A DNA stretch of 64,000 nucleotides, taken from contig DAIQLC010000002.1 of the NCBI GenBank assembly GCA_036789645.1, positions 22,398 through 86,397 of the forward strand. Reading direction: 5' to 3'. A program made the position numbers and the translations under genes. The stretch comes from Candidatus Hydrogenedentota bacterium (GTDB lineage: Bacteria; Hydrogenedentota; Hydrogenedentia; Hydrogenedentales; SLHB01). Each line of letters opens with the position of its first letter. The stretch's first letter is position 1. The notes beneath the pieces are model-generated. The model did no database searches and was not told the DNA's origin. It worked only from the letters and a program-made list of their open reading frames with translations. Shown here piece by piece: positions 2,512 through 62,834 of the stretch.

Positions 2512-2704
2512 TTCGCCTCTCGTACGAACTCAGGCCAGTCCTGCGCCCGGGATCGCCGGACGCGCCGTCGTGTTGACTATGGCGGGGGATAAGAAGTAAA
2601 ACACGGGGGTACGTTTTTGTGACGGGTCACGGGGGAGGAACACCGGAAGTGGCCCATCGCACGTGTTCCAGCGTGGCGCCAATACCTGTGGAAGTGAGGT
2701 GGAT

Positions 2705-4009
2705 ATGCATCGAAAGCTTAATCGTCGCACGTTTCTCGGTTATTCAGTGGCTGCGGGGGCTGCGGCCGCCGTGCCCACCATCATCCCCGCATCCGTCTGG
2801 GGCGCGGAAGACGCGCCGCCGCCCAGCGAGACGGTGAGCGTTGCGTTCATCGGCGTGGGCGGCATGGGGCGGCACAACTTGAAGGATTTCCTGCTTCAGA
2901 AAGACTGCCGGGTCGTCGCGGTGTGCGACGTGTACCGTGACCGGCGCGAGGCCACCAAGGCGGTCATTGACGAAGCGTACGGCGACCAGGGGTGCGCGAT
3001 GTACGGCGATTTCCGGGAGGTTCTGGCCCGGGAGGACATCGACGCCGTGGCGATTGCGGTGCAGGACCACTGGCACGCCCTGATCGCGACCGCGGCCGCA
3101 AAGGCCGGCAAGGATATGTATTGCGAGAAACCGCTGGGGGTCTCGTTCGAAGAGAGCCAGACGATTCGTAACACGATCCGCGAGACGAAGCGGGTACTCC
3201 AGACCGGCACGTGGCAGCGCTCGCTCGAGCATTTTCAGCGGGGCTGCACGCTCGCGAGGAACGGGTACCTGGGGAAGATTCATACGCTCGAAGTGGCCGC
3301 GCCGGGGCCGAGCTATGTGCCGAAGTACGACGGCCCGCTTGACCCGCAGCCGGCGCCGGAGGGATTTGACTGGGCCATGTGGCGGGGTCCCGCGCCCGAC
3401 AAACCCTACAATCCGGGGCGTGTCGCGTGGCCCGACTGGTACCTGATCTGGGACTACTGCGTGGGGTTCATCTGCAACTGGGGCGTGCACAATCTCGACC
3501 AGGCCAACTGGGGCTGCCCCGAGGTGGGCACGCAGCCGTTTGAACTGGAATGCCGGGCCGATTACCGCAACAAGGGTTTCACGGACAACGTGAACGGCTG
3601 GGACGCCACGTTTACGTATCCCGGCGGCCTCAAGATGATCTTCAAAGACAGCGACAAGCTGTTGCAGGGTTGCCGCTTCATCGGCGAGGAAGGGTGGGTG
3701 CACGTGTGCCGCCAGGGGATTACGGCGGAGCCCGAATCGCTGCTGACGGTCGAGTTCAAAGAGAGCGATGTGCCCCTGACGGATTCCACGAATCATGCGG
3801 CCAATTTCCTGGCCTGCATGAAGACCCGCAACGACCCCGTGTCGAGCGTCGATTCCGCGCATATCGCGACGTCTCTGGGCATTCTGGCCGACATCGCGGC
3901 GCGCCTGGAACAGAAGGTGGCGTGGGACCCGGCCGCGGAACGGTTTGTGGACAACGATGCGGCGAACGCCATGTTGCACCGCGACATGCACAACGGATGG
4001 GAGTTGTAA
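2705..4009 (+). CDS. Gfo/Idh/MocA family oxidoreductase, TAT-exported (periplasmic NAD(P)-dependent sugar dehydrogenase).
   Basis: Twin-arginine motif NRRTFLGYSVAAGAAAA. Rossmann motif FIGVGGMGRHNL. Family motif MYCEKPLG and DAVAIAVQDHWHA. RBS gaggtgga before the ATG at 2705; the track ORF begins upstream at 2663. Confidence 0.85.
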   Translation: MHRKLNRRTFLGYSVAAGAAAAVPTIIPASVWGAEDAPPPSETVSVAFIGVGGMGRHNLKDFLLQKDCRVVAVCDVYRDRREATKAVIDEAYGDQGCAMYGDFREVLAREDIDAVAIAVQDHWHALIATAAAKAGKDMYCEKPLGVSFEESQTIRNTIRETKRVLQTGTWQRSLEHFQRGCTLARNGYLGKIHTLEVAAPGPSYVPKYDGPLDPQPAPEGFDWAMWRGPAPDKPYNPGRVAWPDWYLIWDYCVGFICNWGVHNLDQANWGCPEVGTQPFELECRADYRNKGFTDNVNGWDATFTYPGGLKMIFKDSDKLLQGCRFIGEEGWVHVCRQGITAEPESLLTVEFKESDVPLTDSTNHAANFLACMKTRNDPVSSVDSAHIATSLGILADIAARLEQKVAWDPAAERFVDNDAANAMLHRDMHNGWEL

Positions 4010-4011
4010 CC

Positions 4012-4896
4012 ATGCGCTTTGCACAGATTTCGGCCCTGGTCACGGGGCTGGCGCTGGTCCTGGGGAGCCCGGGCGCGTCCGGCGCGGAGGCGCCGTTCGG
4101 CTGGCAGGTGGGCCCGACCGCGTGGACCTTTAACCGCTTTACGCTCTTTGAAGCCATCGACAAGACCGCGTCGGTTGAGCTTGGGTACATTGAGGCGTTC
4201 GAAGGACAACGGGTTCGTCCCGATGCGGACCTGAAACTCCATGCCGCGTTGTCCGATGAGGCGATTCAGGCGCTCCGCGCCAAGCTGGACGCGTGCCGGG
4301 TCAAGATGCCGGGGATTTACATTCATACGATTCCCGGAGAGGAAGCGGCCTGCCGCCAGACGTTCGAGTTCGCCCGCAAACTGGGCGTGCAATATATCGT
4401 TTCGGAGCCCGCGCCCGAATCCCTGGATGTGATCGAACGCTGCTGCGATGAATTCGGCATCAACGTGGCCATCCACAACCATCCGGAAGGCAAGTCGCGG
4501 TACTGGAGTCCGGAGGAGGCCCTGAAGGTATGCGAGGGCCGCGGCCCCCGTATTGGCGTGTGCGCGGACACCGGTCACTGGCTGCGTTCGGGACTGGACC
4601 CGAGCGAGTCCGTCCGGAAACTCGGCAAACGCCTGCTGACCCTGCATTTGAAGGATTTGGACCGGGCCGCGCCCGACGGAACCGACCGGCCATGGGGGCA
4701 AGGCTGCGGCGAACTCGACCAGGTGCTGCGGACCATCCGCGAACTTGGGCTCACGCCGGCCCTGTTTGGCATCGAATACGAATCGAATTGGGAGAATAAT
4801 CTGCCGCACGTCGTGGAATGCGCGGCGTGGTTCAAGAAGACGGTAGGCGCCCTCGCCGCCGGGGAAGCGCAACAGGCGGATTCGGGGCAGCAATAA
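4012..4896 (+). CDS. Exported sugar phosphate isomerase/epimerase (xylose-isomerase-like TIM barrel); candidate 3-keto-glycoside eliminase/lyase.
   Basis: ATG at 4012 lies 2 nt after the stop of the upstream dehydrogenase. Signal peptide MRFAQISALVTGLALVLGSPGASGA. AP-endonuclease 2/xylose-isomerase-like barrel signatures (INVAIHNHPE, ADTGHW, LHLKD). The longer track ORF 3550..4896 is an out-of-frame artefact overlapping the previous gene. Confidence 0.8.
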   Translation: MRFAQISALVTGLALVLGSPGASGAEAPFGWQVGPTAWTFNRFTLFEAIDKTASVELGYIEAFEGQRVRPDADLKLHAALSDEAIQALRAKLDACRVKMPGIYIHTIPGEEAACRQTFEFARKLGVQYIVSEPAPESLDVIERCCDEFGINVAIHNHPEGKSRYWSPEEALKVCEGRGPRIGVCADTGHWLRSGLDPSESVRKLGKRLLTLHLKDLDRAAPDGTDRPWGQGCGELDQVLRTIRELGLTPALFGIEYESNWENNLPHVVECAAWFKKTVGALAAGEAQQADSGQQ

Positions 4897-4927
4897 CACG
4901 CCGGTCGCGGCGCGGCACGCGTCCGGA

Positions 4928-7243
4928 TCAGTTCGCGGTGAAGGTGTATAGGCACGCGCCGGCGGGGGGCAGGCTTGCCTCAAGCGGCGCGGCGCCGTCG
5001 AACGGCCCCATTGCCCAAACCCCCTCCTCGTCGATGCGCGCGAGCATGCACGGGGCGGGGAGGGGATAGGTCTCGCGGGGCAGCGCGAGCGAAAGCGTCT
5101 GAGGCTCGTCGGTCACGTTCGCGAGGACGATGGCCACGCTGCCGTCGGCGGCCTGCCATGCACTCGCCATGACGCGCGGACACGCTTTCCGGTACTGTTT
5201 CAGAGCGTCCTGTTGCCCCGCGTAGATGGACAGGCGGGAGATGTCGATTTCCTCCTCGGGGAGTCCCAGGTCTGGCGGGCGCAGCATCGTTCCGTGGAGG
5301 AGATAACCGAGCCCCTGCTGGCGGACCTTCGCCAGACGGGTCAGGTACGCGAGCTCGGCGGGGCGCTCTTCGAAATGAGCGGGGAGGAAATTGGCGATCG
5401 TGGGCTGCTGTCCCCAGACGAACGCGCGGGCATGTTCCAGGCGGAACTGCTGCGAGAATTTCGTGTCGAGCAATTCAAGGGGGTTCTCCGGCGCGAACTC
5501 GGCGGGCCACAGTTCGTCGTAGGGGGGCATGGTGAGCGAAGAATAATTCCCGAAGAAGATGGCGTAGCCGTGATAGACCGCATGGAAGAAGGGGATGGGG
5601 TCCCAGACGCCCGGCTGGGCGTAGCGTTCCATGCTGACCTGGAGGCTGAGCATCAGGTCGAGATACGGCAGCCAGGCCTCCCCGCAGCCTTCGCCCGCGA
5701 GGACGACGTTCGCCTGCCCGGCGGCATCCGGTTGCGCGTCGCAGCGGTTGCGGATGTCCTCCTGCAGGTTGCGGAACCCGTCGATCCAGTACGTACCGCC
5801 CCCGATGGGATGACCGTGGGCCGGGTCGTAGCAGGGCAGGCTGGCGCAGGCCTGATCCATATAGATGGCGCCGACGCCGAGGCCGGTCACGGCCTGTTCC
5901 GCAAGTCCGGCGTAGGTATTGCGCCAGAATGACGTGCCCATGCACATGGCGGCGCAGGGCGCGGGTTTGAACGTGTTGTAGGTTTCGGGATGCACCTTGC
6001 CGTCGGGTCCTTTGACCGCGAATCGCTCGGCGCCTTCCGCGGCCCAGCTTTCCGTGGTCATGCCCCAGAGCCGCTGGTTCATGTAGACCATCGCGTGGAT
6101 CCCGGCTTCCCGGGCAGCATGAACGGCGTCACGAAACGGTTCGGCGCCTTCGCGGGGCGGGAGGTACTCCGGGAATCCGATGTCGTAGGGGCAGCCGTGC
6201 CACCAGTGCCAGAAGACGCTCACGGGCAGTCCGGTCCGCTCCTGAAGCGCGCGGGCCGGGGTGAGCACCTGGCCGGAGCGGCCGCGGTTCCATACCCAGA
6301 GCGCGGTCTCGACGGCCCAGTCTTCCACACGGCCGGTTTTGAGGCGGGCTTCCCGGGCCCAGGGTTGCTGGAGGGCCCAGACGCGGTATCGCTCGGCCGC
6401 CGTGAACCAGTCACCCTCGAAGGTGCCGAGCGCAACCCGGTATGCCGGTTCGTAGCGGTTCTGCCCGGCCGAGCCCCCCTGGGGCAGGTGCACAACCTCG
6501 AGCCCCGCACGGTTTTCGGCGCCTCCAAACACACAGAAGCGCTTCGCGAACGCCGCCGGGTCGTCCGAACTGATGAAGAGGCCCGGGCCGTCTTCTCGAT
6601 ACAGGGCAATGCATTGCAGTGAGAGCACTCCGGGATATTCCCACTCCATGCGGCCGGGCTTTTCAGGGCGGGAAAGAAACCGGCGCGGCTCTTCAGCGAG
6701 CTGTCCCATCCAGATCGGTGCGGCGAGCCGTTCGTTTTCCTGGGGAGCGATCCCCGGAATCCGAGGGAACCGAAGCGAGGCAAGCGGCAGATTGGCCGTG
6801 TTCTCGACCGCAATGCGCCAATGGGCGGTGGAGACATCCGGGTCGAGCGAGACCGTCGCGACCACCTGCAAATCCGGGGCTTCCGCCACGCCGAAATCGC
6901 GCCACGCGAGTTTCAGGGCGCCGTGGTGGTCGTCCAGAAACGCGTACGTGAAGGACTGGGCGCTGCCGGGCGCGATCTGGGTGACGGGGCAGGGCGGCAG
7001 CATGTGGAGAGTCCAGAGGTCGCCCATGGCCGCGGCCTCGACGAAGGCGTGCCCGTTCATTCTGTCGGTGAATTCCGCCAGGCGTCCGGAATCCGGGTCA
7101 AAGGCGACACGGAGCCCGGCGTTTTCCAGTACGGGCAAGGCTTCGGGGAGTGCGGCCCGGGATGGCGCAGCCGCAGCCAGAATCGCGAGGATGAAGAACG
7201 CGGCGCATAGGGTTTTGAACGGTTCAGGCTGGCGATAGGTCAT
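4928..7243 (-). CDS. Uncharacterised secreted glycoside-hydrolase-like protein (~770 aa).
   Basis: ATG at 7243 (MTYRQPEP...) with RBS aaggaga upstream. Signal peptide FFILAILAAAAPSRA. Trp-rich catalytic-looking core (VFWHWWHGCPYD, AIYMDQACA). No family recognisable by eye. Confidence 0.6.
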   Translation of the reverse strand: MTYRQPEPFKTLCAAFFILAILAAAAPSRAALPEALPVLENAGLRVAFDPDSGRLAEFTDRMNGHAFVEAAAMGDLWTLHMLPPCPVTQIAPGSAQSFTYAFLDDHHGALKLAWRDFGVAEAPDLQVVATVSLDPDVSTAHWRIAVENTANLPLASLRFPRIPGIAPQENERLAAPIWMGQLAEEPRRFLSRPEKPGRMEWEYPGVLSLQCIALYREDGPGLFISSDDPAAFAKRFCVFGGAENRAGLEVVHLPQGGSAGQNRYEPAYRVALGTFEGDWFTAAERYRVWALQQPWAREARLKTGRVEDWAVETALWVWNRGRSGQVLTPARALQERTGLPVSVFWHWWHGCPYDIGFPEYLPPREGAEPFRDAVHAAREAGIHAMVYMNQRLWGMTTESWAAEGAERFAVKGPDGKVHPETYNTFKPAPCAAMCMGTSFWRNTYAGLAEQAVTGLGVGAIYMDQACASLPCYDPAHGHPIGGGTYWIDGFRNLQEDIRNRCDAQPDAAGQANVVLAGEGCGEAWLPYLDLMLSLQVSMERYAQPGVWDPIPFFHAVYHGYAIFFGNYSSLTMPPYDELWPAEFAPENPLELLDTKFSQQFRLEHARAFVWGQQPTIANFLPAHFEERPAELAYLTRLAKVRQQGLGYLLHGTMLRPPDLGLPEEEIDISRLSIYAGQQDALKQYRKACPRVMASAWQAADGSVAIVLANVTDEPQTLSLALPRETYPLPAPCMLARIDEEGVWAMGPFDGAAPLEASLPPAGACLYTFTAN

Positions 7244-28333: not shown

Positions 28334-29686
28334 TCACGCCGCCGGATGCTTCCAGGGGCTTCGATAGGGGCGCAGGAGCAGTTTCGTGGCTTCCGGGTCA
28401 CCGGAGATTTCCCGCTTCACCGGGTCGTACACAAGGGTCCTGCCCGTCTTCATGGCGAGGTTGGCGAGGATGCAGCTTGCCGAGGAAATGTATCCTTCCT
28501 CGATGTCGGCGACCGGCCGTGCGGCGGTTTCGATGGCGGTCACGAAATCGAGCATATGACGCCGGGTCGCGGGGGCGGCCTGCAGTTCGATGCCCTCTTC
28601 GGTCAGATCCTCGGGGTACTGTTCGCGTTCGAACACGGCGTCTTTGTGGATGGGTTCTCCCTTGCCGCGGGGGATGAAATCGTAGCTGTTGATGCTGCCT
28701 TTGAGCGTGCCCTTGTCGCCGTAGAGAATGAATCCCCAGGGGTATGCCGGGTCGGGTGCGTCGCCCCAGGAGCGGTGCTGCCATACCACGGTAAGATCGT
28801 CGTAGGTGAACGTTGCAGCCTGAGTGTCGCTCGTGGTGGCCGCCGATCCCTTCTGCATGTAGATGCCGCCGGAAGACGCAATGCTCCTGGGCCAGCCGAG
28901 TCCAAGCATCCACCGGACGGCGTCGAACATATGGACGCCCATGTCGCCGACGATCCCGTTGCTGTATTCCATGAACGCGCGCCACCAGCCCCGATGCGGC
29001 AGGTGGTCGTAGGGGCGCAGGGGCGCGGGGCCGGTCCACATGTCGTAATCCAGAAACTCGGGCACCGGAATAGGCTCGGGGGCCTCATTGGCGCGCATGT
29101 GGTAGTAGCAGCACATGTCGACATAGGCGACCTTCCCCAGCAGGCCCGCGTCGACGATGTTTTTCTTGGCCTCAATGAGATGGGGGGTGCTTCGGCGCTG
29201 CATGCCGACCTGGACGACGCGGTTATGCCGCCGCGCGGCGTCCAGCATGGCCTCGCTTTCGCGCACGTCGACGGACGTGGGTTTCTGGACGTAGACATGG
29301 GCGCCGGCTTCGACGGCGGCGATCATGGTGAGGGCATGCCAGTGGTCCGGGGTGCCGATGAGCACGATGTCGAGGTCTTTTTCGGCGAGCATCTCTCGGT
29401 AATCGCGGTAGGTGCGCGGCGTCTTCCCCGATTTCTGGCGCTGGCTGATCAGATCCGCGGCGCCCTGGAGCATCTGGGCATCGACGTCGCAGATGGAAAT
29501 GACTTCGACGGGCGCCACCTGCATCAGTCGAAAGAGGTCGCTCTTGCCATACCAGCCCGACCCGATCAGGCCGGCGCGCCACGTCTTCTGGCTGACGACA
29601 TCCACGGCATCGGCGCCCAGCGCCGACAACGCCGCCGAAGCGGCGGCGGCCTGGAGAAATCCCCGGCGATTCATCGTGAAGCTCAT
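28334..29686 (-). CDS. Gfo/Idh/MocA family oxidoreductase, TAT-exported (second copy in the window).
   Basis: TAT motif NRRGFLQAAAASAA, Rossmann GLIGSGWYG, IGTPDHWHA, VYVQKP. Start at the ATG at 29686 (RBS gaggga 5 nt upstream); alternative ATGs at 29692 and 29674. Antisense 505-aa ORF rejected. Confidence 0.85.
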   Translation of the reverse strand: MSFTMNRRGFLQAAAASAALSALGADAVDVVSQKTWRAGLIGSGWYGKSDLFRLMQVAPVEVISICDVDAQMLQGAADLISQRQKSGKTPRTYRDYREMLAEKDLDIVLIGTPDHWHALTMIAAVEAGAHVYVQKPTSVDVRESEAMLDAARRHNRVVQVGMQRRSTPHLIEAKKNIVDAGLLGKVAYVDMCCYYHMRANEAPEPIPVPEFLDYDMWTGPAPLRPYDHLPHRGWWRAFMEYSNGIVGDMGVHMFDAVRWMLGLGWPRSIASSGGIYMQKGSAATTSDTQAATFTYDDLTVVWQHRSWGDAPDPAYPWGFILYGDKGTLKGSINSYDFIPRGKGEPIHKDAVFEREQYPEDLTEEGIELQAAPATRRHMLDFVTAIETAARPVADIEEGYISSASCILANLAMKTGRTLVYDPVKREISGDPEATKLLLRPYRSPWKHPAA

Positions 29687-37482: not shown

Positions 37483-39798
37483 TTACCATTGTGCGGGCAT
37501 GAACCCGTCGACATTCTCCCGGGTGATGATGTGTTTGGGCAGATAGGTCACGGGGGGAATCGGCTCTCCCTGAAACCACCGTGCGGCGGTATGCACCGCG
37601 AGCGCGCCGTCTCCCTCGGCCGACTGGCAGGTGAGCGCGAGGGTTTCTCCGGCCTTTACCGAGTCCATGCCGGTTTTGCTGTTTCCCGCCGCGACGATGA
37701 CGAGGTCGGTTCGTCCCGCTTTCTTCACCGCTTCCAGTGTTCCAGTCAGCTCGAATCCGTCATCCGCCAGGATGAGTCCCTTCAATTCATCTCCGAACTT
37801 GGTGATCCAGGCCGACACCAGTTGCAGGGATGCATCGGCTTCGAGGTTGGCCGTGTCCATGGCCAGCAGTTTCATACCGGGCGCGTATTCGCGGAGTTCG
37901 GTGATGGGCGCGTAGGTGCGGGAGAAGAAACACGAACTGCCGGGCATGTGCCGCACGATGGCGTAGCCGCCGCTCCTGCCCAGCGCGTCGGCAAAGGACC
38001 GGGCGAGCATGCGGAACTGGCCCCAGTCGTCGGGACCGGTCCACGCCAGGCAATACCTCATGGCCTCGTCGCAGGGGATGGTGTTGGAGGTAACGCACGG
38101 GATGCCGGCGCCGTGGATTCTGCGGAGGAGCGGGGTGCAGGCCGTGGCGTCCACCGGAGCGAAGATGATCATGTCCGGATGCTCGTTGATGGCCTGATCT
38201 GTTTGCTGCGCCTGGAGATCGACGTTCCAGTTGCTGTTGAACACCTTGGTCTGCATCCCGTACGCCTCGGCGATCACATGAAACCCGCGCACGTAGGCGG
38301 TCCAGTAAGGGTGATCGCCCGCTTTGAGCAGGATGACGCGCTTGCCGGCGGGGCCGTCTCCCGGCGATACGGGCATCGGCGCCTTTTCGACCCGCCATCC
38401 CGCGAATTCAATGTCCCACCAGTGGCCTCGCTCGGTCTCGGGCAGGCGTTTCGGGTCCTCCGGGCGCTCCGGTATCACGATGGGCGCGTCCGCGGGAGGA
38501 AAGAGATACGGCTGCCCGTCGGTTCCGCGAAGCGCGAAGACGTCGTGCCGGTGCGCGGCATCAGGCACGCCCCGGTAAACGGTTGTGGCGCCGTCCGGGG
38601 CAATAAGCTGTACGGGAAGCGACGCGAACTTGAAGTACATGGCCGTGATCGCCGCAATGGCCACGAGCGCGGTGAGCGTCAGGCAAACCAGCGGGAAACG
38701 GTCCCTGCTCTGCATATCCGACTCTCCTTCATCGGTTTCCGGCGATCCGGCGCTGCTGAATACGGTACCTTCGCGGACCTCGTTGAGCAAATCAGGCCGT
38801 TGTCCTTTGAGGAGTTCGTGCCGGTGGATGGCATAGGCCTCATACAGGACGACGAGGGCGAGAATCAGGCCATTCACGAAAATCTGCACTTCGAACCCCC
38901 ATCCGTAACATCCGATGCCGTTGAAGAGGGTTGTCAGCATCAGCACGGCGAAATAGCTCTTGAGGACGCTGCCTTTGCCGCCGGTCATGAGGGTGCCGCC
39001 GATGATCACGGCGGCCAGGACGGTCATGAGGGTGCGGGTGCCGAGGACGGCGGCCGCGGTCATCGAACTGAGGCTTGCCGCGAACAGGGCGCCGCCCGCC
39101 GCCGCCGTGAGGCTGCACAGGCAGAAGCCGGTGATGAGGTAGCGGTCGCGGTGGAGCCCGGCGAGCCACGCGGCGTCGGGATTGGCGCCCACCAGAAAGA
39201 AGACCCGGCCCCAGCGGGTGCGGTTGAGGAACACGGAACCGAGGGCCGCCAGCGCGATGGGAATGAGGGCGAGCGGGGGCAGGAACAGAACGAGCGGCGC
39301 CGCGAGCCAGTCCGCAAACCGGAAATCGTCGATGGATTTCGAGCCGCCGTCGCTGTACAGGTGCATCAGCCCCATGACGATGGTCATCGTGCCGAGGGTG
39401 ACGATAAACGAGTTGATGCGGGCCTTGACGACCAGCAGGCCGTTAAACAGCCCCGTCAGCAGACCCGCGCCAAGCGCGATCGCGAACGCGCCTGCCCAGC
39501 CACACGACGGCTGCAGGCCGATCGTAAGCATGCCGGAGAGCATGACCACCGCGCCGATGGACAGATCGAGCTGGCCGAGGATCAGAATGATCGTGAACCC
39601 GAGCGCCACCGTCGCGTTGAGGCTGGCCCCTTTCAGGATGGTGGATACGTTGTGAAGGGAGAGAAAATTCGGCGCGAAGGCGCTGAGGTATGCGAAAAGC
39701 GCGGCCAGCATCAGGAGCGCGCGATGTTCGTTCACGAATCGCGGGACGTTCCGGAGCGCATTTCCGGAAACCCTGCCTGTGCGGTCCGGGTTACGCAT
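37483..39798 (-). CDS. Fusion protein: ABC sugar permease (RbsC/AraH-like, N-terminal ~330 aa) + extra TM helix + C-terminal periplasmic sugar-binding (RbsB/LacI-type PBP) domain.
   Basis: N-terminal permease core homologous to the adjacent permease (SIGAVVMLSGMLT..., TLMTGGKGSV). Then FPLVCLTLTALVAIAAITAMYF. Then a type-I periplasmic-binding-protein-like domain (KRVILLKAGDHPYW...IIFAPVD...IPCVTSN). The ATG at 39798 overlaps the upstream stop by 8 nt. Confidence 0.75.
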   Translation of the reverse strand: MRNPDRTGRVSGNALRNVPRFVNEHRALLMLAALFAYLSAFAPNFLSLHNVSTILKGASLNATVALGFTIILILGQLDLSIGAVVMLSGMLTIGLQPSCGWAGAFAIALGAGLLTGLFNGLLVVKARINSFIVTLGTMTIVMGLMHLYSDGGSKSIDDFRFADWLAAPLVLFLPPLALIPIALAALGSVFLNRTRWGRVFFLVGANPDAAWLAGLHRDRYLITGFCLCSLTAAAGGALFAASLSSMTAAAVLGTRTLMTVLAAVIIGGTLMTGGKGSVLKSYFAVLMLTTLFNGIGCYGWGFEVQIFVNGLILALVVLYEAYAIHRHELLKGQRPDLLNEVREGTVFSSAGSPETDEGESDMQSRDRFPLVCLTLTALVAIAAITAMYFKFASLPVQLIAPDGATTVYRGVPDAAHRHDVFALRGTDGQPYLFPPADAPIVIPERPEDPKRLPETERGHWWDIEFAGWRVEKAPMPVSPGDGPAGKRVILLKAGDHPYWTAYVRGFHVIAEAYGMQTKVFNSNWNVDLQAQQTDQAINEHPDMIIFAPVDATACTPLLRRIHGAGIPCVTSNTIPCDEAMRYCLAWTGPDDWGQFRMLARSFADALGRSGGYAIVRHMPGSSCFFSRTYAPITELREYAPGMKLLAMDTANLEADASLQLVSAWITKFGDELKGLILADDGFELTGTLEAVKKAGRTDLVIVAAGNSKTGMDSVKAGETLALTCQSAEGDGALAVHTAARWFQGEPIPPVTYLPKHIITRENVDGFMPAQW

Positions 39799-53714: not shown

Positions 53715-54029
53715 GTGAAAACGCAAATCGAACAGATCCTTCAGGCGGAACAGGACGCCAAGGCCCGGGTAGCCGCGGCCGAGCAGAAAGCTCGGGAAAT
53801 CGCCGCCGCGGCTGCCGCGGAGGCGGCCCGCACCGCCGCCGGATTCCGGGACGCCGCCAAGGCGCAAGTCCAGGAACTGCTTCAACATACGCGTGAGGAG
53901 GCGGAGCGGGAAAAGAGGCTGCTGATTGAACACGCCCGTGCCGAAGCCGCGGAAATTGCCGGGCGCGAATGGACCGGGGGGACGTCCCGGATAGACGAGG
54001 CCGTCCGGTCCCTTGCCGGACTCCCCTGA
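53715..54029 (+). CDS. V/A-type ATP synthase peripheral-stalk subunit (G/H-like), ~104 aa coiled coil.
   Basis: Ala/Glu/Arg/Lys-rich heptad sequence KTQIEQILQAEQDAKARVAAAEQKAREIAAAAAAEA, typical of V-ATPase G/H or b-like subunits. GTG start at 53715; alternative GTG at 53631. Its stop overlaps the next gene start (TGATG). Confidence 0.5.
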   Translation: MKTQIEQILQAEQDAKARVAAAEQKAREIAAAAAAEAARTAAGFRDAAKAQVQELLQHTREEAEREKRLLIEHARAEAAEIAGREWTGGTSRIDEAVRSLAGLP

Positions 54030-55069
54030 TGCGCGCTCTCGCCCGATATTCTGAGGCGAATGCCATCATTCGCGCGAGCCTCTCCAGCCTGCTCACCAGG
54101 GGCCAACTGGATGAGATCCTGCGCGCGGGCGCCTTCTCGGATTCGTGGAATGCACTAAAGTCGACCGCGTACGCGGCATGGCTGCCCGAGATTGCGGCCC
54201 CGGCGCCGCTTCCCGTGGAGCGGGCCCTGAAGGATGCGACGGCATTGCGGTTCAAACGGGCCATCCGTTCGTTGAAGGGCAAGGCGGGGGAGGTGGGCGC
54301 CCTGCTGCTGTCCCGGTGGGAGCTGGACGACCTCCACGATGCGCTCCGGGCGTGGCACGCTAAAGACGCGGCGTATACTCCTCCGGTTTCCGGCGTTTCG
54401 CTGGGAACCGCCGTGCCGTTCCGCGACATCGCGCGTGCCGAAACGCTGGAGGCGGTGGGCGCTCTGCTCAGCAAGACGCCGTATGCGAAGCCTGTCCTCG
54501 AGACCGCGCGCATTTACCGGGAGACCCGCAGCCTGTTCCATCTGGAGATTGCCCTGGAGAAGGGGCACTATCGCCGGCTGATCGCCGCGATTCAGGACCT
54601 GGGCGGACACGATGCCGGCCACGGGCTGCGATTGATTGCGGCCGAGATCGACCTGGTGAATCTGTCATGGCTCTCGCGGTGTGCGTCGTATTACGAGGCC
54701 CCGGCAGCGCTCTTGCGCGAGGCCATGATCCCGAACGTGTCCGCCCTCGCGAGCACACTCGAAAAGACGGGGTTTTCGGCGGAAGAGGTCGCTGAGGTGT
54801 CGCTCCAGTACGTGTCGGAACTGGCGGGGGACCAGGGGGGCAAGGCGCCCGGGCTGGAACGGATTGCGCTGCTCGAATCGTTCGTGATTGAGGCGGCGGT
54901 TGACGCGGCGCGGCGCGAACTTGCGGGATTCCCGTTCTGCATCGCTTGTGTGATTGCCTTCTATTTCCTGATACGTACGGAATTGCGCAATCTGAGGGGT
55001 ATTTTCGCGGGACGTGCCGCCGGGTTTTCGCCCGATGAGCTGTCCGGCAGGCTTTGTGGAATCAGGTGA
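54029..55069 (+). CDS. V/A-type ATP synthase subunit C (V0 d-subunit homologue).
   Basis: All-helical ~346-aa protein in the canonical position before subunit I. Overlapping start. Family resemblance only. Confidence 0.7.
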   Translation: MRALARYSEANAIIRASLSSLLTRGQLDEILRAGAFSDSWNALKSTAYAAWLPEIAAPAPLPVERALKDATALRFKRAIRSLKGKAGEVGALLLSRWELDDLHDALRAWHAKDAAYTPPVSGVSLGTAVPFRDIARAETLEAVGALLSKTPYAKPVLETARIYRETRSLFHLEIALEKGHYRRLIAAIQDLGGHDAGHGLRLIAAEIDLVNLSWLSRCASYYEAPAALLREAMIPNVSALASTLEKTGFSAEEVAEVSLQYVSELAGDQGGKAPGLERIALLESFVIEAAVDAARRELAGFPFCIACVIAFYFLIRTELRNLRGIFAGRAAGFSPDELSGRLCGIR

Positions 55070-55072
55070 GCT

Positions 55073-57061
55073 GTGAAACTGGTCGCGGAAAAGATGTGCC
55101 GGTTCACCGCCGTCATCCTGCGTGACGACATGCCGGGCGTTCTGGAAACGGTTGCACGCGCGGGCGTGCTGCACCTGACCAGCGTCGAGGAAACCGAGGC
55201 CTGGGCCGCGGCGCTCGCCGATATCGACGTCAAGCGCCTCACCCGGGAGTGTGTCGAGCGCAAGGCGAAGCTGGAGGGCCTGTTCGGCGAAAAGCTGAGC
55301 GCGGAAGGTTCGCCCTTGCCCGCCGGTTTTGCCGAGGTGTCGGGCACGAGCCTGGCCGAGGTGGACGCGGTCATCGCAAATGCGGAAGCCGCCATCACGC
55401 CGCTTTCGGAATCGGGCATCCGGCTTGCCGACCGGCTTTCCCGGCTGGAGTCGACGCTGTCGGGCCTTGATGCGCTGGTTCCGTCGAATCTCCCCCTGGC
55501 CCGGCTGTTGCGTTCTTCGATGCTGTACACGGCGGTCGGCGTGCTGCCCCAGGAGCAGTTCCCGCGACTCGAAATGCTGCTGAAAGACGTTCCTTCGGTG
55601 GTGTTGCCATACCGCCGCATCGCGCGCGAAGTCCACGTGGTGTGTCTGGTGCTGCAGAAACACAAGGACACCCTCGGCCGGGCCCTGCACGATACGGGTT
55701 TTGTCGAGGCGCCGGTTCCGCGGGATGCCGCCGAGGTTACGCAGGAGGCCCGGGGCGAATTGCTCGATGAAGTGCGGTCTGTCGAGGCGCAGCTTGCCGA
55801 AAACCAGACCGCGCTGGCGGCTGCCCGGGAAACGGCCTGGCCTGCCGCCGCCATGGCCCTGCAGCGACTGAACGCCGGTCTGCTGATCCTGCGGATGCAG
55901 GATTTGTGTAAAGTCACCGACCGCACGTGTGCCTTTGCCGGCTGGGTCCCTCAGGATCGGACCGGGGCCCTGATTGACGCCATCCACGAACAAAGCCGCG
56001 GCCGCGCCATCGTCGAGGTGGCCGAAGCCGAATCGCTCGAGCCGGTCCAGGAGGGCAAGGTCGACGTCCCCGTGCTGTTCAACCGCCCGAAGTTTCTGCA
56101 GCCGTTTGCGCTGCTCACGGAGGGCTTCGACATCCCTTCCTACACGATGATCGACCCGACGATCTTCGTGGCGGTCTCGTTTCTGCTGATGTTCGGCATG
56201 ATGTTCGGCGATGTGGGTCACGGTCTGGTGCTGTGTGGTCTGGGGGCGCTGCTGATCTGGAAGTCGCCCCAGTACCGGGATATCGGCAAACTCGCCGTCT
56301 ATTGCGGCATGGCTTCGGCCGTCTTCGGGCTCTTGTACGGCAGCGTCTTCGGCCTGGAACACCTCCTGCCGGCCCTGTGGACCAAGCCGCTGGAGGGGAT
56401 CAACGACCTGTTTGCCTTCGCCATCGGGTTTGGGATCCTGTTTGTCAGCCTGGGCATCGTGCTGAACGTCCTCAATGCGATCCGCGCGCACGCGTTCTGG
56501 GAAACCCTGTTTGACGGCGCAGGCCCCCTGGTCGGGATCATCTACTGGTCGGGCATCGGTCTGGTCGTGAAGTCGTTTCTTTCCTCATCGCGGATGCCTC
56601 ATTCGGCGTGGCTGGTGGCGCCGATGGCGCTTGCCCTGACCGGGTTCCTGTTGAAAGGGCCCCTGCTCCGGTTGCTCGGCAAGCAGGAACGGGCGTTCCC
56701 GGAAGGCGTCATTACCTACGTGATGGAATCCGCCGTGGAGGTCATGGAGGTATTCATGGGGTACCTGGCCAACACGGTGTCCTTCATCCGCGTGGCGGCA
56801 TTCGGCCTGGCGCATGCCGGGCTGTTCGTGGCCGTATTCAGTCTGGCTGACATTGTGAGCGGGGCGCCGGGCGGCCGCTTCCTGTCGCTGGGCGTGATCC
56901 TCGCCGGCAACGTGCTCATCATCGTGCTCGAGGGCGTCGTGGTCACGATCCAGGCGTTGCGGCTTGAGTACTACGAGTTCTTTGGGAAGTTCTTCAACCG
57001 GAGTGGGCAGAAATACGCGCCCGTCGGAGTGTCGTCACCTCCGGCGGATGCGGCAAACTGA
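55073..57061 (+). CDS. V/A-type ATP synthase subunit I (a-subunit).
   Basis: Soluble coiled-coil N-terminal half followed by a multi-TM C-terminal half with the conserved Arg-containing helix (IQALRLEYYEFFGKFF). GTG start at 55073. Confidence 0.85.
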   Translation: MKLVAEKMCRFTAVILRDDMPGVLETVARAGVLHLTSVEETEAWAAALADIDVKRLTRECVERKAKLEGLFGEKLSAEGSPLPAGFAEVSGTSLAEVDAVIANAEAAITPLSESGIRLADRLSRLESTLSGLDALVPSNLPLARLLRSSMLYTAVGVLPQEQFPRLEMLLKDVPSVVLPYRRIAREVHVVCLVLQKHKDTLGRALHDTGFVEAPVPRDAAEVTQEARGELLDEVRSVEAQLAENQTALAAARETAWPAAAMALQRLNAGLLILRMQDLCKVTDRTCAFAGWVPQDRTGALIDAIHEQSRGRAIVEVAEAESLEPVQEGKVDVPVLFNRPKFLQPFALLTEGFDIPSYTMIDPTIFVAVSFLLMFGMMFGDVGHGLVLCGLGALLIWKSPQYRDIGKLAVYCGMASAVFGLLYGSVFGLEHLLPALWTKPLEGINDLFAFAIGFGILFVSLGIVLNVLNAIRAHAFWETLFDGAGPLVGIIYWSGIGLVVKSFLSSSRMPHSAWLVAPMALALTGFLLKGPLLRLLGKQERAFPEGVITYVMESAVEVMEVFMGYLANTVSFIRVAAFGLAHAGLFVAVFSLADIVSGAPGGRFLSLGVILAGNVLIIVLEGVVVTIQALRLEYYEFFGKFFNRSGQKYAPVGVSSPPADAAN

Positions 57062-57073
57062 AAGGTATCACCG

Positions 57074-57430
57074 ATGTACAAGGGAATCCAGTCTCAGAAA
57101 CGGGCAATCCGGGCATTGACCCTGGCGGGCATTGCGGTGCTTGCGGCGTCGCTCTGGAGTTCGGGGGCCTGGGCGCAGACCGGGGAAGCCGGACTGGCCC
57201 CCGCTCCCGATTCGCAGAACGCGGGTTGGGCTTATCTGGCCGCGGCGTTGAGCGTCGGGCTGGGGTGCGTCGGCGCGGGCATTGCGGTCGCCTACGTGGG
57301 CAGCGCCGCCGTCGGCGCCGTGGCCGAAAAGCCGCAACTCGCCGCCCGCACGCTGATCTTCGTCGGGCTCGCGGAAGGCATCGCGATTTACGGCCTGATC
57401 ATCGGCATTATGGTGCTGGGCAAGGTGTGA
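57074..57430 (+). CDS. V/A-type ATP synthase proteolipid subunit K/c: single 2-TM hairpin with a ~45-aa N-terminal signal-peptide-like extension.
   Basis: Mature part AGWAYLAAALSVGLGCVGAGIAVAYVGSAAVGAV...LIFVGLAEGIAIYGLIIGIMVL carries the ion-binding Glu in helix 2. N-terminal extension IRALTLAGIAVLAASLWSSGAWA|QT looks like a cleavable signal peptide. Confidence 0.75.
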   Translation: MYKGIQSQKRAIRALTLAGIAVLAASLWSSGAWAQTGEAGLAPAPDSQNAGWAYLAAALSVGLGCVGAGIAVAYVGSAAVGAVAEKPQLAARTLIFVGLAEGIAIYGLIIGIMVLGKV

Positions 57431-57431
57431 C

Positions 57432-57737
57432 ATGGTGCCGTTTATCATAGGAGACGGCCAGACCGTGCTCGGATTTCGCCTGGTGGGCGTCGAGGGCCGG
57501 GTGGCCAGCGGTCGTGACGACGCGCTGGCGGCGTTGAATGAGGCGCTCGACAACCGCGAGATCGGGCTCATCGTGATTCCTGAGCGGCTCGCGGCGGAGA
57601 TCCGCGACGAAATCGACGCGCGGCTTGCCGATGCCGGGTTCCCCCTGATCCTCGAAGTGGCCGATGCCGCCGGACCGATGCCCGGCCGGCCCGGTATCGA
57701 GGACATTGTCCGCAAGGCGGTGGGAGTCAGTCTATGA
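57432..57737 (+). CDS. V/A-type ATP synthase subunit F.
   Basis: ~100-aa protein, MVPFIIGDGQTVLGFRLVGVEG...GLIVIPERLAAEIRDEI, typical of subunit F. Confidence 0.75.
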   Translation: MVPFIIGDGQTVLGFRLVGVEGRVASGRDDALAALNEALDNREIGLIVIPERLAAEIRDEIDARLADAGFPLILEVADAAGPMPGRPGIEDIVRKAVGVSL

Positions 57738-58384
57738 GCGGCGATGCCCTGGACGCCGGAGGCCTTCAGATTGTCGAGAGCATCCTGTCGGATGCCGATG
57801 CGCAGGCCTCCCGCATTATCGACAGCGCCGAGAACGCGGCCCGGGCTGCGCGGGAAAAGGCACGCATCGAAGGAGAGCGCGGACGCGACGAGAGTCTGGT
57901 AAAGGCCCGGGAGCGCTGCGCGAAACTCCGCGCCCAGGAGCTCGCCACCGCGCGGATTGAGGCCAAACGGCTCCTGCTTGCGGCGAGAGAAGACGTCGCG
58001 GAACGCGTGCTCGGGCAGATCGAAGAGCGGCTGGAGGCCGTGCGGCGGTCCCCGGAGACGTACGCGCGGTCGCTGCGGAACCTTGCCGTGGAAGCCGTTG
58101 CGGCCATCGGCCGGCCCGAGGTGGTCTTGCGGATCAGCCAGACGGACGCCGCGCTTGTGAGCGGCGCCTTCGCCAGCCAGGTCGCGTCGGACGGCCGGGC
58201 TGCTGCCGCGGGCGTCTCCAGCGTGACGCTGCAACTGGACGCGCGTGATTGGGGCGGCGGCTGCATCGCCCAATCGCCCGACGGGCGCGTCGTCTATGAC
58301 AATACGTACCGGACGAGGATGCAACGCAAACGACGGGAGCTTCGTGCGATGATCGTCAGGGATGTGATGGACAGCCATGGCTGA
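57734..58384 (+). CDS. V/A-type ATP synthase subunit E.
   Basis: Long N-terminal coiled coil (IIDSAENAARAAREKARIEGE...) plus a C-terminal globular domain. Overlapping starts and stops with its neighbours. Confidence 0.75.
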   Translation: MSGDALDAGGLQIVESILSDADAQASRIIDSAENAARAAREKARIEGERGRDESLVKARERCAKLRAQELATARIEAKRLLLAAREDVAERVLGQIEERLEAVRRSPETYARSLRNLAVEAVAAIGRPEVVLRISQTDAALVSGAFASQVASDGRAAAAGVSSVTLQLDARDWGGGCIAQSPDGRVVYDNTYRTRMQRKRRELRAMIVRDVMDSHG

Positions 58385-60146
58385 ACGCATTATCGGAACG
58401 GTGAGACGGGTGGTCGGCCCCGTGGTTGAGGCCGGCAACGTCACCGGAGTGGAGATGCTCGAACTCGTCTTCGTGGGCGACGAGCGTCTTGTGGGCGAGA
58501 TCGTGCGGATCCGCGGCGATGTGGCCTGGATCCAGGTCTACGAGGACACCACAGGCCTTCGCCCCGGGGCGCCCGTCATTGGCCAGGGGGAGCCGCTGTC
58601 GGTGGAGTTGGGACCGGGCCTGCTGGGAAGCATCTACGACGGCGTTCAGCGTCCGCTCGACGTGCTGCGGATGCAGATGGGCGATTTCGTGTCCCGGGGC
58701 GTTCATGCGCCCGCCCTGTCGCGCGAGAAACGCTGGCATTTCCGCCCATGCGTGACGCCTCCGTGCCGCGTCCAGGGCGGGGCCGTTCTCGGGGTGGTGC
58801 AGGAGACGGAAGTGATCGAGCACCGGATCCTGACGCCCCCGTGGGTGGAGGGCGAACTGGTGCGGGTCGCCCCGGACGGCGACTATGGCATTGAGGATAC
58901 CGTGGCGACGGTGAGCACGCCGGGCGGCGACGTCGACCTCCGGTTTTTCCATAAATGGCCCGTTCGCAAGGGCCGTCCGTATGCCAAACGCCTGGCCTGC
59001 GCCGGCCCGTTGATTACCGGGCAGCGTGTGCTCGATACCCTGTTCCCCGTGGCGCGAGGCGGGGTGGTGGTGGTCCCCGGCGGGTTCGGCACGGGCAAGA
59101 CGATGGTGCAGCACGCCATCGCGAAATGGTGCGATGCCGATCTCGTGGTCTACATCGGCTGCGGCGAGCGCGGAAACGAAATGACCGGCGTGCTCACCGA
59201 GTTCCCCGAGCTGATCGATCCGCGCACGGGCAAATCGCTGATGGAACGCACCCTGCTCATCGCCAACACCTCGAACATGCCGGTTGCGGCGCGCGAGGCC
59301 AGCATCTACACGGGAATCACCATCGCCGAGTATTACCGCGACATGGGCTACAACGTCGCCATCATGGCCGATTCAACGTCGCGCTGGGCGGAGGCCCTGC
59401 GGGAATTGTCCGGCCGGATGGAGGAAATGCCCGCCGACGAGGGGTTCCCGGCCTATCTTCCGACGCGCCTCGCCGAATTCTACGAGCGTGCCGGCCTCGT
59501 CACCACACTGGGCGGGCACGAGGGAAGCATCACCACGATCGGGGCCGTGTCGCCGCCCGGCGGCGATTTCTCCGAGCCCGTCACGCAACATACCAAACGC
59601 TTTGTGCGGGCGTTCTGGGCGCTCGACAAGCAACTGGCCAATGCGCGGCACTATCCCGCCATCAGCTGGCTCGAGAGCTACAGCGAGTACATCGACGACG
59701 TGGCCCCCTGGTGGGACGAAAAGACCAATGAAAGCTGGCGGGAACTGCGTTCCGACATCATGGCCATCATGCAGAAAGAGGCCCGGCTCGAACACGTCGT
59801 CAAACTGGTCGGGGCCGATGTCCTTCCCGACAGCCAGCGGCTCATTCTCGAAGTGGCCGCCATGTTCAAGAACGCCTTTCTGCAACAGAACGCCTTCGAC
59901 AAGGTCGACGCCTTCTGCGTTGCGGAAAAACAGTACGTGATGCTGAACATCATCGTGACCTTCTACACCCTGGCCGCGGAGGCCATCCAGAAGGGCGTCA
60001 CCCTGGCCTCCCTGAAGAGGATGGACGTCGTGCGCGATATCATGCAGATGAAGTACGAATGCCCCAACGACGAGCTGAACCGGCTCGATACCTTGTTGAA
60101 GGAGCTCGAGGAATCGATTCATGAACTCACAAGCATCTACGGCTGA
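58377..60146 (+). CDS. V/A-type ATP synthase catalytic subunit A.
   Basis: P-loop GGFGTGKT, conserved GERGNE and the non-homologous insertion region typical of A subunits. 589 aa. Confidence 0.95.
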
Positions 60147-61536
60147 AACCTCCCATCGCCGGCTGCTCGATGACCGCGAGTATGTGGGGCTTGACGAGGT
60201 GTCCGGGCCGATCGTGGGCGTAAGCGGCATTCACAACGTCGGCTACAACGAACTGGCCGAGATCGTTGACCGCCACGGCACTACCCGTCTCGGGATGACG
60301 CTCGAGGTATCGGAAGGCGCCGCCGTGATCCAGGTTTTCGAAGGCACCTCGGGGCTCAAGCTGGGCGATACGCGCGTGCGGTTCCGCGGCCATCCGCTCA
60401 CCCTGGCGGTTTCGGAGGAGATGCTGGGCCGGGCCTTCGACGGGCTGGGCCGGCCGTTCGATGGCGGCCCGGAGCCCATCGGCGAAGAACGCGACGTCAA
60501 CGGCCTGCCCGTGAATCCGACCGCGCGCGACTATCCCCGCAAATTCATCCAGACCGGCATTTCGGCGATTGACGGCATGAACACGCTGGTGCGCGGGCAG
60601 AAGCTGCCGGTGTTTTCCGGGAGCGGTCTGCCGCACCGCCAGCTTGTCGCCCAGATTACGCGCCAGGCCCGCATCGTCGGAGAAGACATTCCGTTCGCCG
60701 TGGTATTCGCGGGCATGGGAATCAAGCACGACGAGGCCCGGTTCTACCTCAAGAACTTCGAGGAATCGGGCGCGATGGAGCGCGTGGTCGCGTTCCTCAG
60801 CCTCGCGGACGCGCCCTCCGTGGAACGCCTCATGACGCCGCGGACGGCGCTCACCGCCGCCGAATACCTGGCGTTCGACCTGGGCATGCACGTGCTGGTG
60901 ATCCTCACCGACATGACCAACTATTGCGAGGCGTTGCGGGAGATTTCCACGCAACGGCAGGAGATCCCGAGCCGCAAAGGCTATCCGGGCTATCTTTACA
61001 GCGACCTGGCCAGCATCTACGAGCGCGCGGGCATGCTCCGGGGCAAACCGGGTTCGATCACCCAGATCCCCGTCGTGACCATGCCCAACGACGACATCTC
61101 GCACCCGATACCCGATCTCTCCGGGTTCATCACCGAAGGCCAGATCGTGCTGGACCGCGATCTCGACCAGCGGGGCATCTACCCCCCGATTGCGGGGCTT
61201 CCCTCGCTTTCCCGCCTCATGAAAGACGGCATCGGCGAAGGCATGACGCGCGCGGATCACGCGCATCTCGCCAGCCAGCTTTTCGCCTCCTACGCGCACG
61301 TGAAGGACATCCGATCGCTCGCGTCCGTCATCGGTGAAGAGGAACTGACGGCTCTGGACCGAAGCTACATGGAATTCGGCGAGATATTCGAGCAGCAGTT
61401 TCTGTCGCAGGGGCCTGAGGAAGACCGCTCGATCGAACAGACCCTGGACCTCGGCTGGAAAATCCTGCAGTCCCTGCCGCGTGAGGAACTTCACCGGATC
61501 ACGGAAGAGGAAATCAGGAAGTATTACGGAAGGTAA
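60121..61536 (+). CDS. V/A-type ATP synthase subunit B.
   Basis: Collinear with V/A-type B subunits (degenerate P-loop region [27 protein letters not shown]). Overlaps the A subunit gene by 26 nt. Confidence 0.95.
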
Positions 61537-61537
61537 T

Positions 61538-62167: not shown

Positions 62168-62170
62168 CGT

Positions 62171-62662: not shown

Positions 62663-62834
62663 TCGGGCCGCGGAATCGGTTTGACGGTATCCGCGCACTT
62701 CGTGTTGATTCTTGAACTCGAAACATCCGCGCGGATCACGAAGTCTAATACTTGGTATTTCAGTGAATGGCGCGGGCGGCGCCTGCAGGGAGCCCTTCCA
62801 GCGACCGTGCAGCAGCCCGCGTGGAGGTACAACG

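Follow-up and report, generated by a model that had tools for sequence, protein, structure and literature searches.

We describe two adjacent genes, here termed gene A and gene B (Table 1), in a stretch of 64,000 nucleotides of the Candidatus Hydrogenedentota contig DAIQLC010000002.1 (positions 22,398 to 86,397; hereafter the window). On balance, we lean to the view that they form a two-gene operon for the periplasmic, non-hydrolytic cleavage of glycosides. Gene A codes for a Gfo/Idh/MocA oxidoreductase (hereafter Gfo) that is a candidate NAD-bound glycoside dehydrogenase, and gene B for a xylose-isomerase-like triosephosphate isomerase (TIM) barrel that is a candidate metal-dependent 3-keto-glycoside 1,2-lyase. 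The proposal draws on the relationship of gene A to a characterized glycoside 3-dehydrogenase, the lyase-like residues predicted for the active site of gene B, the recurrence of the gene pair in several phyla, and the domains to which homologs of gene B are fused. The idea of cleavage by oxidation and elimination is not new, as such a pathway was published in 2023-2024. The new elements are the barrel lineage, its connection to the pathway through a web of fusions, the phylum, and a minimal core of just two genes.

Gene A codes for an exported relative of the glycoside 3-dehydrogenase AL3

The start codon of gene A is preceded by GTGAGGTGGAT, in which a GAGGTGG Shine-Dalgarno-like run can be read directly, and its product begins with MHRKLNRRTFLGY. 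The twin-arginine translocation (Tat) signal scores 18.1 against the NCBIfam model TIGR01409, above the cut-off of 16.7, and 22.5 bits against the Pfam model TAT_signal, slightly below the gathering cut-off of 22.7. Pfam further recovers the domains GFO_IDH_MocA (PF01408, 65 bits) and GFO_IDH_MocA_C2 (PF19051, 81 bits), and the AlphaFold model has a predicted local distance difference test (pLDDT) score of 82.7, falling below 50 in residues 1-39. Among 25 relatives, there is no variation in R7 and R8 of the signal and hardly any in F10 and L11; likewise invariant are I49, G50, G52 and G55 around the Rossmann-fold glycine motif, the acidic D75, K142 and P143 of the E-K-P motif, and H262, with N258 nearly invariant. 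From the general behavior of Rossmann folds, we take D75 to suggest NAD rather than NADP as the cofactor.

Among characterized proteins, the Alistipes/Bacteroides glycoside 3-dehydrogenase AL3/BT2158 stands closest to gene A. In NCBIfam, the top match is to the glycoside 3-dehydrogenase model BT_2158_fam (NF058561, 138 bits), followed by IolG at 74; among sequences of the PDB, AL3 (8tdf/8tdh) leads with 80 bits and DgpA is next with 54. A Foldseek search with the gene A model likewise returned AL3 (8tdf_A) on top, matched over its full length in 473 columns with template modeling (TM) scores of 0.73/0.70, while the remaining Gfo enzymes have query-normalized TM scores of at most 0.61. Given this whole-length fold match, gene A and AL3 can be placed in one structural subclass, that of Tat-exported enzymes with a large PF19051 C-terminal domain. 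Gene A agrees with AL3 in the Tat signal, the GxGxxG motif, the EKP lysine, Gln166 (AL3 Gln161) and His262 (AL3 His252); in AL3, His252 is the ligand of OH-3 (Nasseri et al., bioRxiv 10.1101/2024.03.25.586180).

Gene B is a TIM barrel with lyase-like catalytic residues

The product of gene B matches the Pfam domain AP_endonuc_2, the xylose-isomerase-like TIM barrel (PF01261), with 68 bits. Its N-terminus reads MRFAQISALVTGLALVLGSPGASGA and then EAP, which resembles a signal for the general secretory (Sec) route and has no lipobox; the AlphaFold model (pLDDT 92) is of low confidence only at this end, with values below 50 in residues 1-23. The homologs have similar N-termini on direct inspection, and a crude hydrophobic-run proxy for signal peptides, itself uninformative, flagged 32 of 80 homologs. 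Export of gene B through Sec is thus a prediction, and with this qualification the open reading frames (ORFs), Pfam and TIGR01409 agree with a preliminary description of this DNA, which had recognized a Gfo gene with a Tat signal followed 2 nt on by an exported TIM barrel.

The nearest solved structures are 3P6L (BDI_1903), 4KW2 (BDI_1873) and 3LMZ, structural-genomics proteins of Parabacteroides distasonis with no assigned function, and these three orphans are all that represents the uncharacterized family of gene B. In the literature on 3P6L, BDI_1903, 4KW2, 3LMZ, AtHYD and Art22 we found no functional study of the family or of Art22. The family is moderately large, with 262 clusters at 50% identity for E <= 1e-30 and 1049 for E <= 1e-10.

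Fifteen residues of gene B are invariant in 30 homologs: H155, N156, H157, P158, D186, H189, W190, R192, H212, K214, D225, W228, E255, Y256 and E257. We compared them with fragments of the lyases AL1, BT1 and AtOGE, rebuilt out of HMMER alignments. The AL1 motifs YHNH, ELDVYW, LHIKD and VEVE correspond to IHNH, ADTGHW, LHLKD and IEYE in gene B, which keeps all active-site residues of AL1 in the aligned stretch, namely His178, His180, Asp211, Trp214, His237 and Glu272 (AL1 His103 lies outside it). In AL1, Asp211 and His237 bind the metal, Trp214 the substrate, and Glu272 has been put forward as the base that sits above C2 (Nasseri et al., bioRxiv 10.1101/2024.03.25.586180). HMMER likewise aligns, at a constant offset, H155, H157, D186 and H212 with His132, His134, Asp163 and His189 of AtOGE. 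Of these, His132 and His189 are metal ligands and His134 is the catalytic base; the H134A mutant is dead and H189A retains less than 0.1% activity (PMC10628242). MAFFT places E255 on the second glutamate of the AL1 motif. Gene B therefore has, at the sequence level, the His/Asp/His metal-site pattern of these TIM barrels, with a second histidine at +2 and a glutamate on the last strand.

The gene B family profile matches the barrel P2B11-Iso2 with an hhalign probability of 92.6% (E 4.7e-7, about 73 core columns). With Iso2 as the query, BT1, AtOGE and AL1 are found at 1e-13 to 1e-15, and structures of the gene B family are found directly (4kw2 at 6e-5, 3lmz, 3p6l).

A different role for the barrel has to be weighed here. 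Gene B might hydrate glycals, as AtHYD does, or act as an epimerase or isomerase of keto sugars in the manner of YcjR, in which case the pair would still act on keto-glycosides, remodeling or recycling them while some other protein does the cleaving. From a comparison with the lyases and YcjR, we regard this as rather unlikely. The first metal ligand of gene B is predicted to be a histidine and not a glutamate, and the His-x-His, Asp..Trp and His-x-Lys-Asp motifs are those of the lyase group; the corresponding places in YcjR read LEPLN and HIAD, a site of the Glu type in which LEPLN stands where gene B has His155, and its hhalign probability against the gene B family is 0.18%, as against 92.6% for Iso2. 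Classification of gene B with the YcjR or D-tagatose 3-epimerase type was rejected on the same two counts. Hence, the active site of gene B is by its residues of the 3-keto-glycoside lyase type and not that of the Glu-type epimerases, and the protein looks lyase-like in its catalytic residues, yet forms a lineage of its own by overall sequence.

The pair is conserved across phyla

Genes A and B are separated by 2 nt ('cc'), and with the Shine-Dalgarno element of gene B lying inside gene A their translation is predicted to be coupled. A scan for consensus terminators found no terminator-like site between them, and a promoter scan upstream of gene A found no promoter-like site, with a consensus that may not suit this phylum. 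Both frames have a third-position G+C of 0.77-0.81, like the real genes of the window. The long antisense ORFs that overlie them (2744..4024 and 3793..4983, both on the minus strand, and similar ones) are devoid of this signal and are an expected artefact of DNA with 63-65% G+C. Products of the same lengths, 434 and 294 residues, appear in the public annotation of six near-identical contigs, and a protein identical to that of gene B occurs in 371 indexed blocks of the public assembly collection. The nearest named relatives of both proteins, at 67-85% identity, come from Candidatus Hydrogenedentota genomes.

With each species represented by one genome, a scan found 80 loci with gene B homologs, of which the 67 with 1.5 kb or more of sequence upstream were assessable; adjacency was defined as a same-strand Gfo gene ending no more than 400 nt from the barrel. 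By this measure 33 of the 67 have a Gfo gene directly upstream, and these span Hydrogenedentota, Verrucomicrobiota, Planctomycetota and Bacteroidota. Set against a generous baseline of 4% for Gfo neighbors, this gives P ~3e-28, a value to be read as an order of magnitude only since the loci are not fully independent. With slightly looser adjacency there are 37 such loci, and the upstream Gfo protein has a twin-arginine motif of the RRxF[LIV] type in 33 of them, the remainder being truncated. The stop-to-start spacing of the orthologous pairs ranges from -4 to about 16 nt. The recurrence of the Gfo-then-barrel order in other species means that the adjacency of genes A and B is not due to chance. 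Furthermore, the barrels closest to gene B (52-85% identity; Hydrogenedentota, Verrucomicrobiota and Planctomycetaceae) have A-like neighbors scoring 286-962 bits, while the more distant barrels adjoin Gfo genes of another subgroup, from which it follows that the two families diversify together.

These data bear on the notion that gene A acts alone, as a NAD-dependent glycosidase of the glycoside hydrolase (GH) family GH109 or as a periplasmic redox enzyme like glucose-fructose oxidoreductase (GFOR), with gene B a mere neighbor. Both GH109 enzymes and GFOR are also Tat-exported, cofactor-bound Gfo proteins and appear among the PDB matches of gene A (6t2b, 37 bits; 1h6a, 31 bits), and some close homologs of gene A have no barrel after them. 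AL3 is clearly the better match, and the 2-nt spacing, the order conserved across phyla and the tracking of B-like barrels by A-like Gfo genes all argue for a common function of the pair. We therefore hold independent action of gene A to be the least probable of the readings considered.

In certain Phycisphaerae, Sedimentisphaerales and Pirellulales (loci L055, L064, L079, L085, L036, L044, L073, L076, L081 and L086), a barrel or barrel-DUF1080 gene is preceded by a tandem array of three to five Gfo paralogs with Tat signals, spaced about 1.4 kb apart, and is often followed by one more Gfo gene. This arrangement suggests a battery of dehydrogenases served by one common lyase module. Separately, a locus labeled 'uncultured Nitrospiraceae' (L008, CAZFOG010000055.1) has the order OmpA, A, B and DUF6259 at 74-82% identity, as in the Hydrogenedentota loci, and its label may reflect mis-binning.

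Homologs of gene B are fused to domains of 3-keto-sugar metabolism

Gene B homologs at 40-46% identity are fused to DUF1080, to ThuA, or to both. By phmmer, DUF1080 is attached to 22 of the 80 barrels, and Pfam detects more, such as a protein of locus L036 with two copies. The architectures among family representatives include ThuA-TIM, DUF1080-TIM and ThuA-DUF1080-TIM (P0279), often with HEAT repeats; no Gfo-TIM fusion occurs among the 10 multidomain representatives scanned. ThuA, together with the Gfo enzyme ThuB, gives rise to 3-ketotrehalose. The DUF1080 proteins AL2/BT2 serve as glycal hydratase and as the lyase for 3-keto-alpha-glucosides (Nasseri et al., bioRxiv 10.1101/2024.03.25.586180). 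The two kinds of fusion point the same way, linking the gene B family to pathways of 3-keto sugars.

B-type barrels combined with ThuA, DUF1080 and HEAT repeats are found in the large multidomain representatives P0279, P0250, P0251, P0264, P0247, P0282 and P0337, one of which carries the Fibrobacter 'Fib_succ_major' domain. The closest homologs of gene B outside Hydrogenedentota, from Verrucomicrobiota and Planctomycetaceae, are fused to a neutral ceramidase-like domain of about 430 residues (PF04734, about 30 bits, under the cut-off), which is sometimes followed by Laminin_G_3 (L014:5902-8055, L016, L020 and L018:6007-9039). Stand-alone genes for this domain also occur beside A-like Gfo genes (L087:6405-8564 and L089:3462-4970), and it may be another part of these clusters that has yet to be described.

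A proposed mechanism and its alternatives

We propose that the scheme of Nasseri et al., here applied to a different barrel family, would operate in the pair as follows. The data establish the gene structures, export signals, family kinships, conserved residues, linkage and fusions; the chemical steps, the position oxidized, the metal and the substrate are all predictions. The gene A product would fold around NAD in the cytoplasm, be exported in its folded state through Tat and, once in the periplasm, oxidize one of the ring hydroxyls of its glycoside substrate to a ketone, the one at C3 being the most likely. The gene B product, exported through Sec, would use His155, Asp186 and His212 to bind a divalent metal, by analogy either Mn2+ or Co2+. 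This metal would polarize the keto group, His157 or one of Glu255 and Glu257 would take the acidic C2 proton, and the aglycone or neighboring sugar would be expelled by 1,2-elimination. Hydration of the resulting 2-hydroxy-3-keto-glycal would then fall to gene B or to a DUF1080-type protein from a gene elsewhere, and the NADH held on gene A would reduce the 3-keto sugar back to the sugar. The net effect would be a redox-neutral hydrolysis that needs no free cofactor pool.

Several observations weigh against this proposal. The 138 bits of gene A against BT_2158_fam fall far short of its cut-off of 750, and residues 6-267 alone match, covering positions 1-251 of 487, that is, the N-terminal half of the model. 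In the alignment with 8tdf, gene A has Gly-Pro-Ser-Tyr for Arg192-Pro-Ile-Trp195 of AL3 and N258 in place of Asp248 (AL3 Tyr349 lies outside the alignment). In AL3 the residues Arg192, Trp195 and Asp248 bind the glucoside (Nasseri et al., bioRxiv 10.1101/2024.03.25.586180), and their absence makes gene A a distant relative and not an ortholog, probably with another sugar specificity. On the side of gene B, the family profile matches AL1 (8tcs, whose aligned region equals the 8tcd sequence) with an E-value of 0.13 and AtOGE (8bvk) with 2.4e-4, and fold searches placed the lyases no nearer than the epimerases or IolE. Its best NCBIfam match is IolE (TIGR04379), with 27.8 bits over 80 residues; when gene B and two fused homologs were compared with NCBIfam at E-values up to 10, only weak matches to IolE, UlaE and CbiR appeared, and no lyase-specific model was matched. 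About half of the gene B homologs have no adjacent Gfo gene, and the operon of genes A and B is devoid of a DUF1080 gene, a reductase, a transporter and a regulator. Neither gene is an ortholog of a characterized enzyme, and neither reaches the cut-off of a curated family.

The matches to IolE and IolG also raise the alternative that the substrates are free cyclitols or monosaccharides, the pair working either as a periplasmic analog of IolG and IolE or by oxidation and then dehydration of a sugar, with no glycosidic bond being cleaved. The scores are far under the respective cut-offs, at 27.8 against 290 bits for IolE, as which gene B was rejected, and 74 against 355 for IolG. Inositol catabolism is cytoplasmic, whereas the products of genes A and B are both predicted to be exported; the window holds no other iol genes; and the DUF1080 and ThuA fusions, along with the Tat-Gfo partners, favor 3-keto-glycoside pathways. 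We judge the cyclitol alternative improbable. Thus the oxidize-then-eliminate pair put forward in the preliminary description stands in part: the kinship of gene A with AL3, the lyase residues of gene B, the conserved pairing and the fusions speak for it, and the missed cut-offs and the lack of specificity in the fold search against it.

Comparison with known systems

The closest precedent is the oxidation-elimination-hydration pathway of AL1-AL4 in Alistipes and BT2156-BT2159 in Bacteroides thetaiotaomicron, with the structures 8TCD, 8TCS, 8TCT, 8TDA, 8TDF and 8TDH (Nasseri et al., bioRxiv 10.1101/2024.03.25.586180). Routes through 3-ketoglycosides had been inferred genetically (Price et al., PMC9007349), and a functional-genetics study of B. 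thetaiotaomicron also inferred them, according to Nasseri et al. (bioRxiv 10.1101/2024.03.25.586180). BT2157 is the DUF1080 protein in Price et al. (PMC9007349), so that the barrel lyase called BT1 would be BT2156. In both systems a Tat-exported, NAD-bound Gfo enzyme (AL3; gene A, as predicted) is combined with a Sec-exported, metal-dependent TIM-barrel lyase (AL1/BT1; gene B, as predicted). They differ in that gene A is only about 20% identical to AL3, that gene B comes from another barrel family, and that the host belongs to Hydrogenedentota and not to the gut Bacteroidales. Moreover, an operon of the BT2156-2160 type comprises a TIM lyase, a DUF1080 gene, two Gfo genes and a regulator, whereas here just genes A and B adjoin, with no DUF1080 gene, second Gfo gene or regulator in the operon.

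AtOGE of Agrobacterium tumefaciens (8BVK), which works with AtHYD and a Gfo reductase, is a Mn2+-dependent TIM-barrel beta-eliminase (PMC10628242) of a size similar to gene B. The P2B11 glucuronide cluster of a Gram-positive gut bacterium consists of Oxido1, Oxido2, Iso1 and Iso2 (Nasseri et al., bioRxiv 10.1101/2024.03.25.586180). Like the present pair, it joins Gfo enzymes to TIM barrels with no DUF1080 protein, and Iso2 is, among characterized proteins, the best match of the gene B profile; the cluster differs in its glucuronide substrates and in that the Iso and Oxido sequences have, by eye, no evident signal peptide. In the guloside-to-glucoside conversion of Escherichia coli by YcjQ, YcjR and YcjS, the gene for the Gfo glucoside 3-dehydrogenase YcjS similarly adjoins that for a TIM barrel acting on 3-keto-glycosides, YcjR; the latter is, however, a 3-keto-guloside 4-epimerase, and neither protein starts with a signal-like segment as judged from its sequence. 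C-glycoside deglycosidases are not known to be exported. Those of the DgpA plus DgpB/C and CarB/C systems have a heteromeric lyase with an extra beta subunit and residues for aromatic aglycones (PMC8563793), while gene B has no gene for a partner subunit.

The mechanism having been published already, the conceptual advance is limited; the annotation of gene B is nevertheless a useful and testable one for a large orphan family. Were it true, it would provide a function for three orphan crystal structures and for a family of at least 262 clusters, and would extend the oxidative pathway of gut Bacteroidales to environmental phyla that degrade complex polysaccharides. It would also offer a concrete, testable reason for the abundance of genes for Tat-exported Gfo enzymes, barrels, DUF1080 and ThuA in these organisms; surveys that count classical hydrolases and lyases alone would miss this capacity. 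More tentatively, and with appreciable doubt, we suggest that the 3P6L-like barrels are a separate, unrecognized family of 3-keto-glycoside lyases. Together with the Tat-Gfo enzymes, DUF1080, ThuA and the ceramidase-like domain, they might form a modular periplasmic oxidative toolkit, greatly expanded in Planctomycetota, Verrucomicrobiota and Hydrogenedentota, for glycans beyond the reach of ordinary glycoside hydrolases. Such a toolkit would account for several of the largest families in these three phyla that have no known function.

Other genes of the window

The window is a stretch of ordinary chromosome, with a gene of the OmpA family directly upstream of gene A. Downstream, the DUF6259 gene lies convergent to gene B, as it also does in L007 and L008, the two loci most similar to this one.

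The preliminary description had also listed a second Gfo gene with a Tat signal and a DUF1080 gene, and had counted both as parts of the same route. Pfam bears out the existence of each, the former on the minus strand, whereas their membership of the route is not borne out: they sit in separate transcription units among unrelated neighbors, far from the pair (Table 1), and being unlinked to it they add little support to the proposal made here. The DUF1080 protein is a short form that is only distantly related to the characterized BT2/AL2 (27-30 bits) and resembles the orphan structures 3S5Q and 3IMM more closely; its gene is flanked by a GH2 gene on one side and the end of a sugar ATP-binding cassette (ABC) operon on the other, both on the opposite strand. 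A search of the window for a third component found no ceramidase-like domain, no other barrel and no other DUF1080 gene.

Table 1. Coordinates of genes A and B, their sequence motifs and other features, numbered from the first nucleotide of the window
Feature	Position	Strand	Remarks
Shine-Dalgarno-like run GTGAGGTG	2694..2701	+	Read directly; putative role
Gene A	2705..4009	+	ATG 2705, TAA 4007-4009; 434 aa; Gfo/Idh/MocA oxidoreductase, twin-arginine signal
Gene A twin-arginine signal peptide	2705..2806	+	About residues 1-34; N-R-R-T-F-L-G is residues 6-12
Gene A Rossmann GxGxxG, G50-V-G-G-M-G55	2852..2869	+	Codons checked
Gene A acidic D75	2927-2929	+	Codon checked
Gene A K142, catalytic lysine of E-K-P motif	3128..3130	+	Aligned to EKP of AL3 and YcjS
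Gene A N258-W-G-V-H262	3476..3490	+	HMMER alignment to 8tdf
GGAG Shine-Dalgarno of gene B	4000..4003	+	In gene A 3' end, 8 nt before gene B ATG
Gene B	4012..4896	+	ATG 4012, TAA 4894-4896; 294 aa; xylose-isomerase-like TIM barrel
Gene B predicted Sec signal	4012..4086	+	About residues 1-25; hydrophobic stretch, then A-S-G-A
Gene B H155-N-H157	4474..4482	+	Aligned to AtOGE His132/His134, AL1 His178/His180
Gene B D186-T-G-H-W190	4567..4581	+	Aligned to AL1 Asp211/Trp214, AtOGE Asp163
Gene B H212-L-K214 (H-x-K-D motif)	4645..4653	+	Aligned to AL1 His237, AtOGE His189
Gene B E255-Y-E257	4774..4782	+	One of the two glutamates aligns to AL1 Glu272 / AtOGE Glu233
G+C-rich hairpin, possible terminator	4897..4914	-	Sole site in consensus scan, pattern match only; in 31-nt gap to convergent DUF6259 gene
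DUF6259 protein, 799 aa	4928..7327	-	370 bits; faint GH30 C-terminal and apionate-lactonase-like matches; convergent to gene B
Second Gfo gene (MSFTMNRRGFLQ...)	28334..29686	-	24 kb from the A-B pair
DUF1080 gene, 222 aa	35434..36102	+	PF06439, 144 bits; 31 kb from the A-B pair
ORF joining BPD_transp_2 permease and Peripla_BP_4 sugar-binding domain	37483..39798	-	Ahead of second permease and ATPase; provided that the ORF is genuine, an unusual fusion
V/A-type ATPase operon (subunits C/AC39, I, A, B)	53969..63299	+	Right end of window

The glycosidase-like genes of the window comprise GH28-like, GH2 and GH43/32-like ones, along with genes containing GH20b and the carbohydrate-binding module CBM11. 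Other genes code for a MacB-type ABC efflux system, a sugar ABC importer and an aquaporin.

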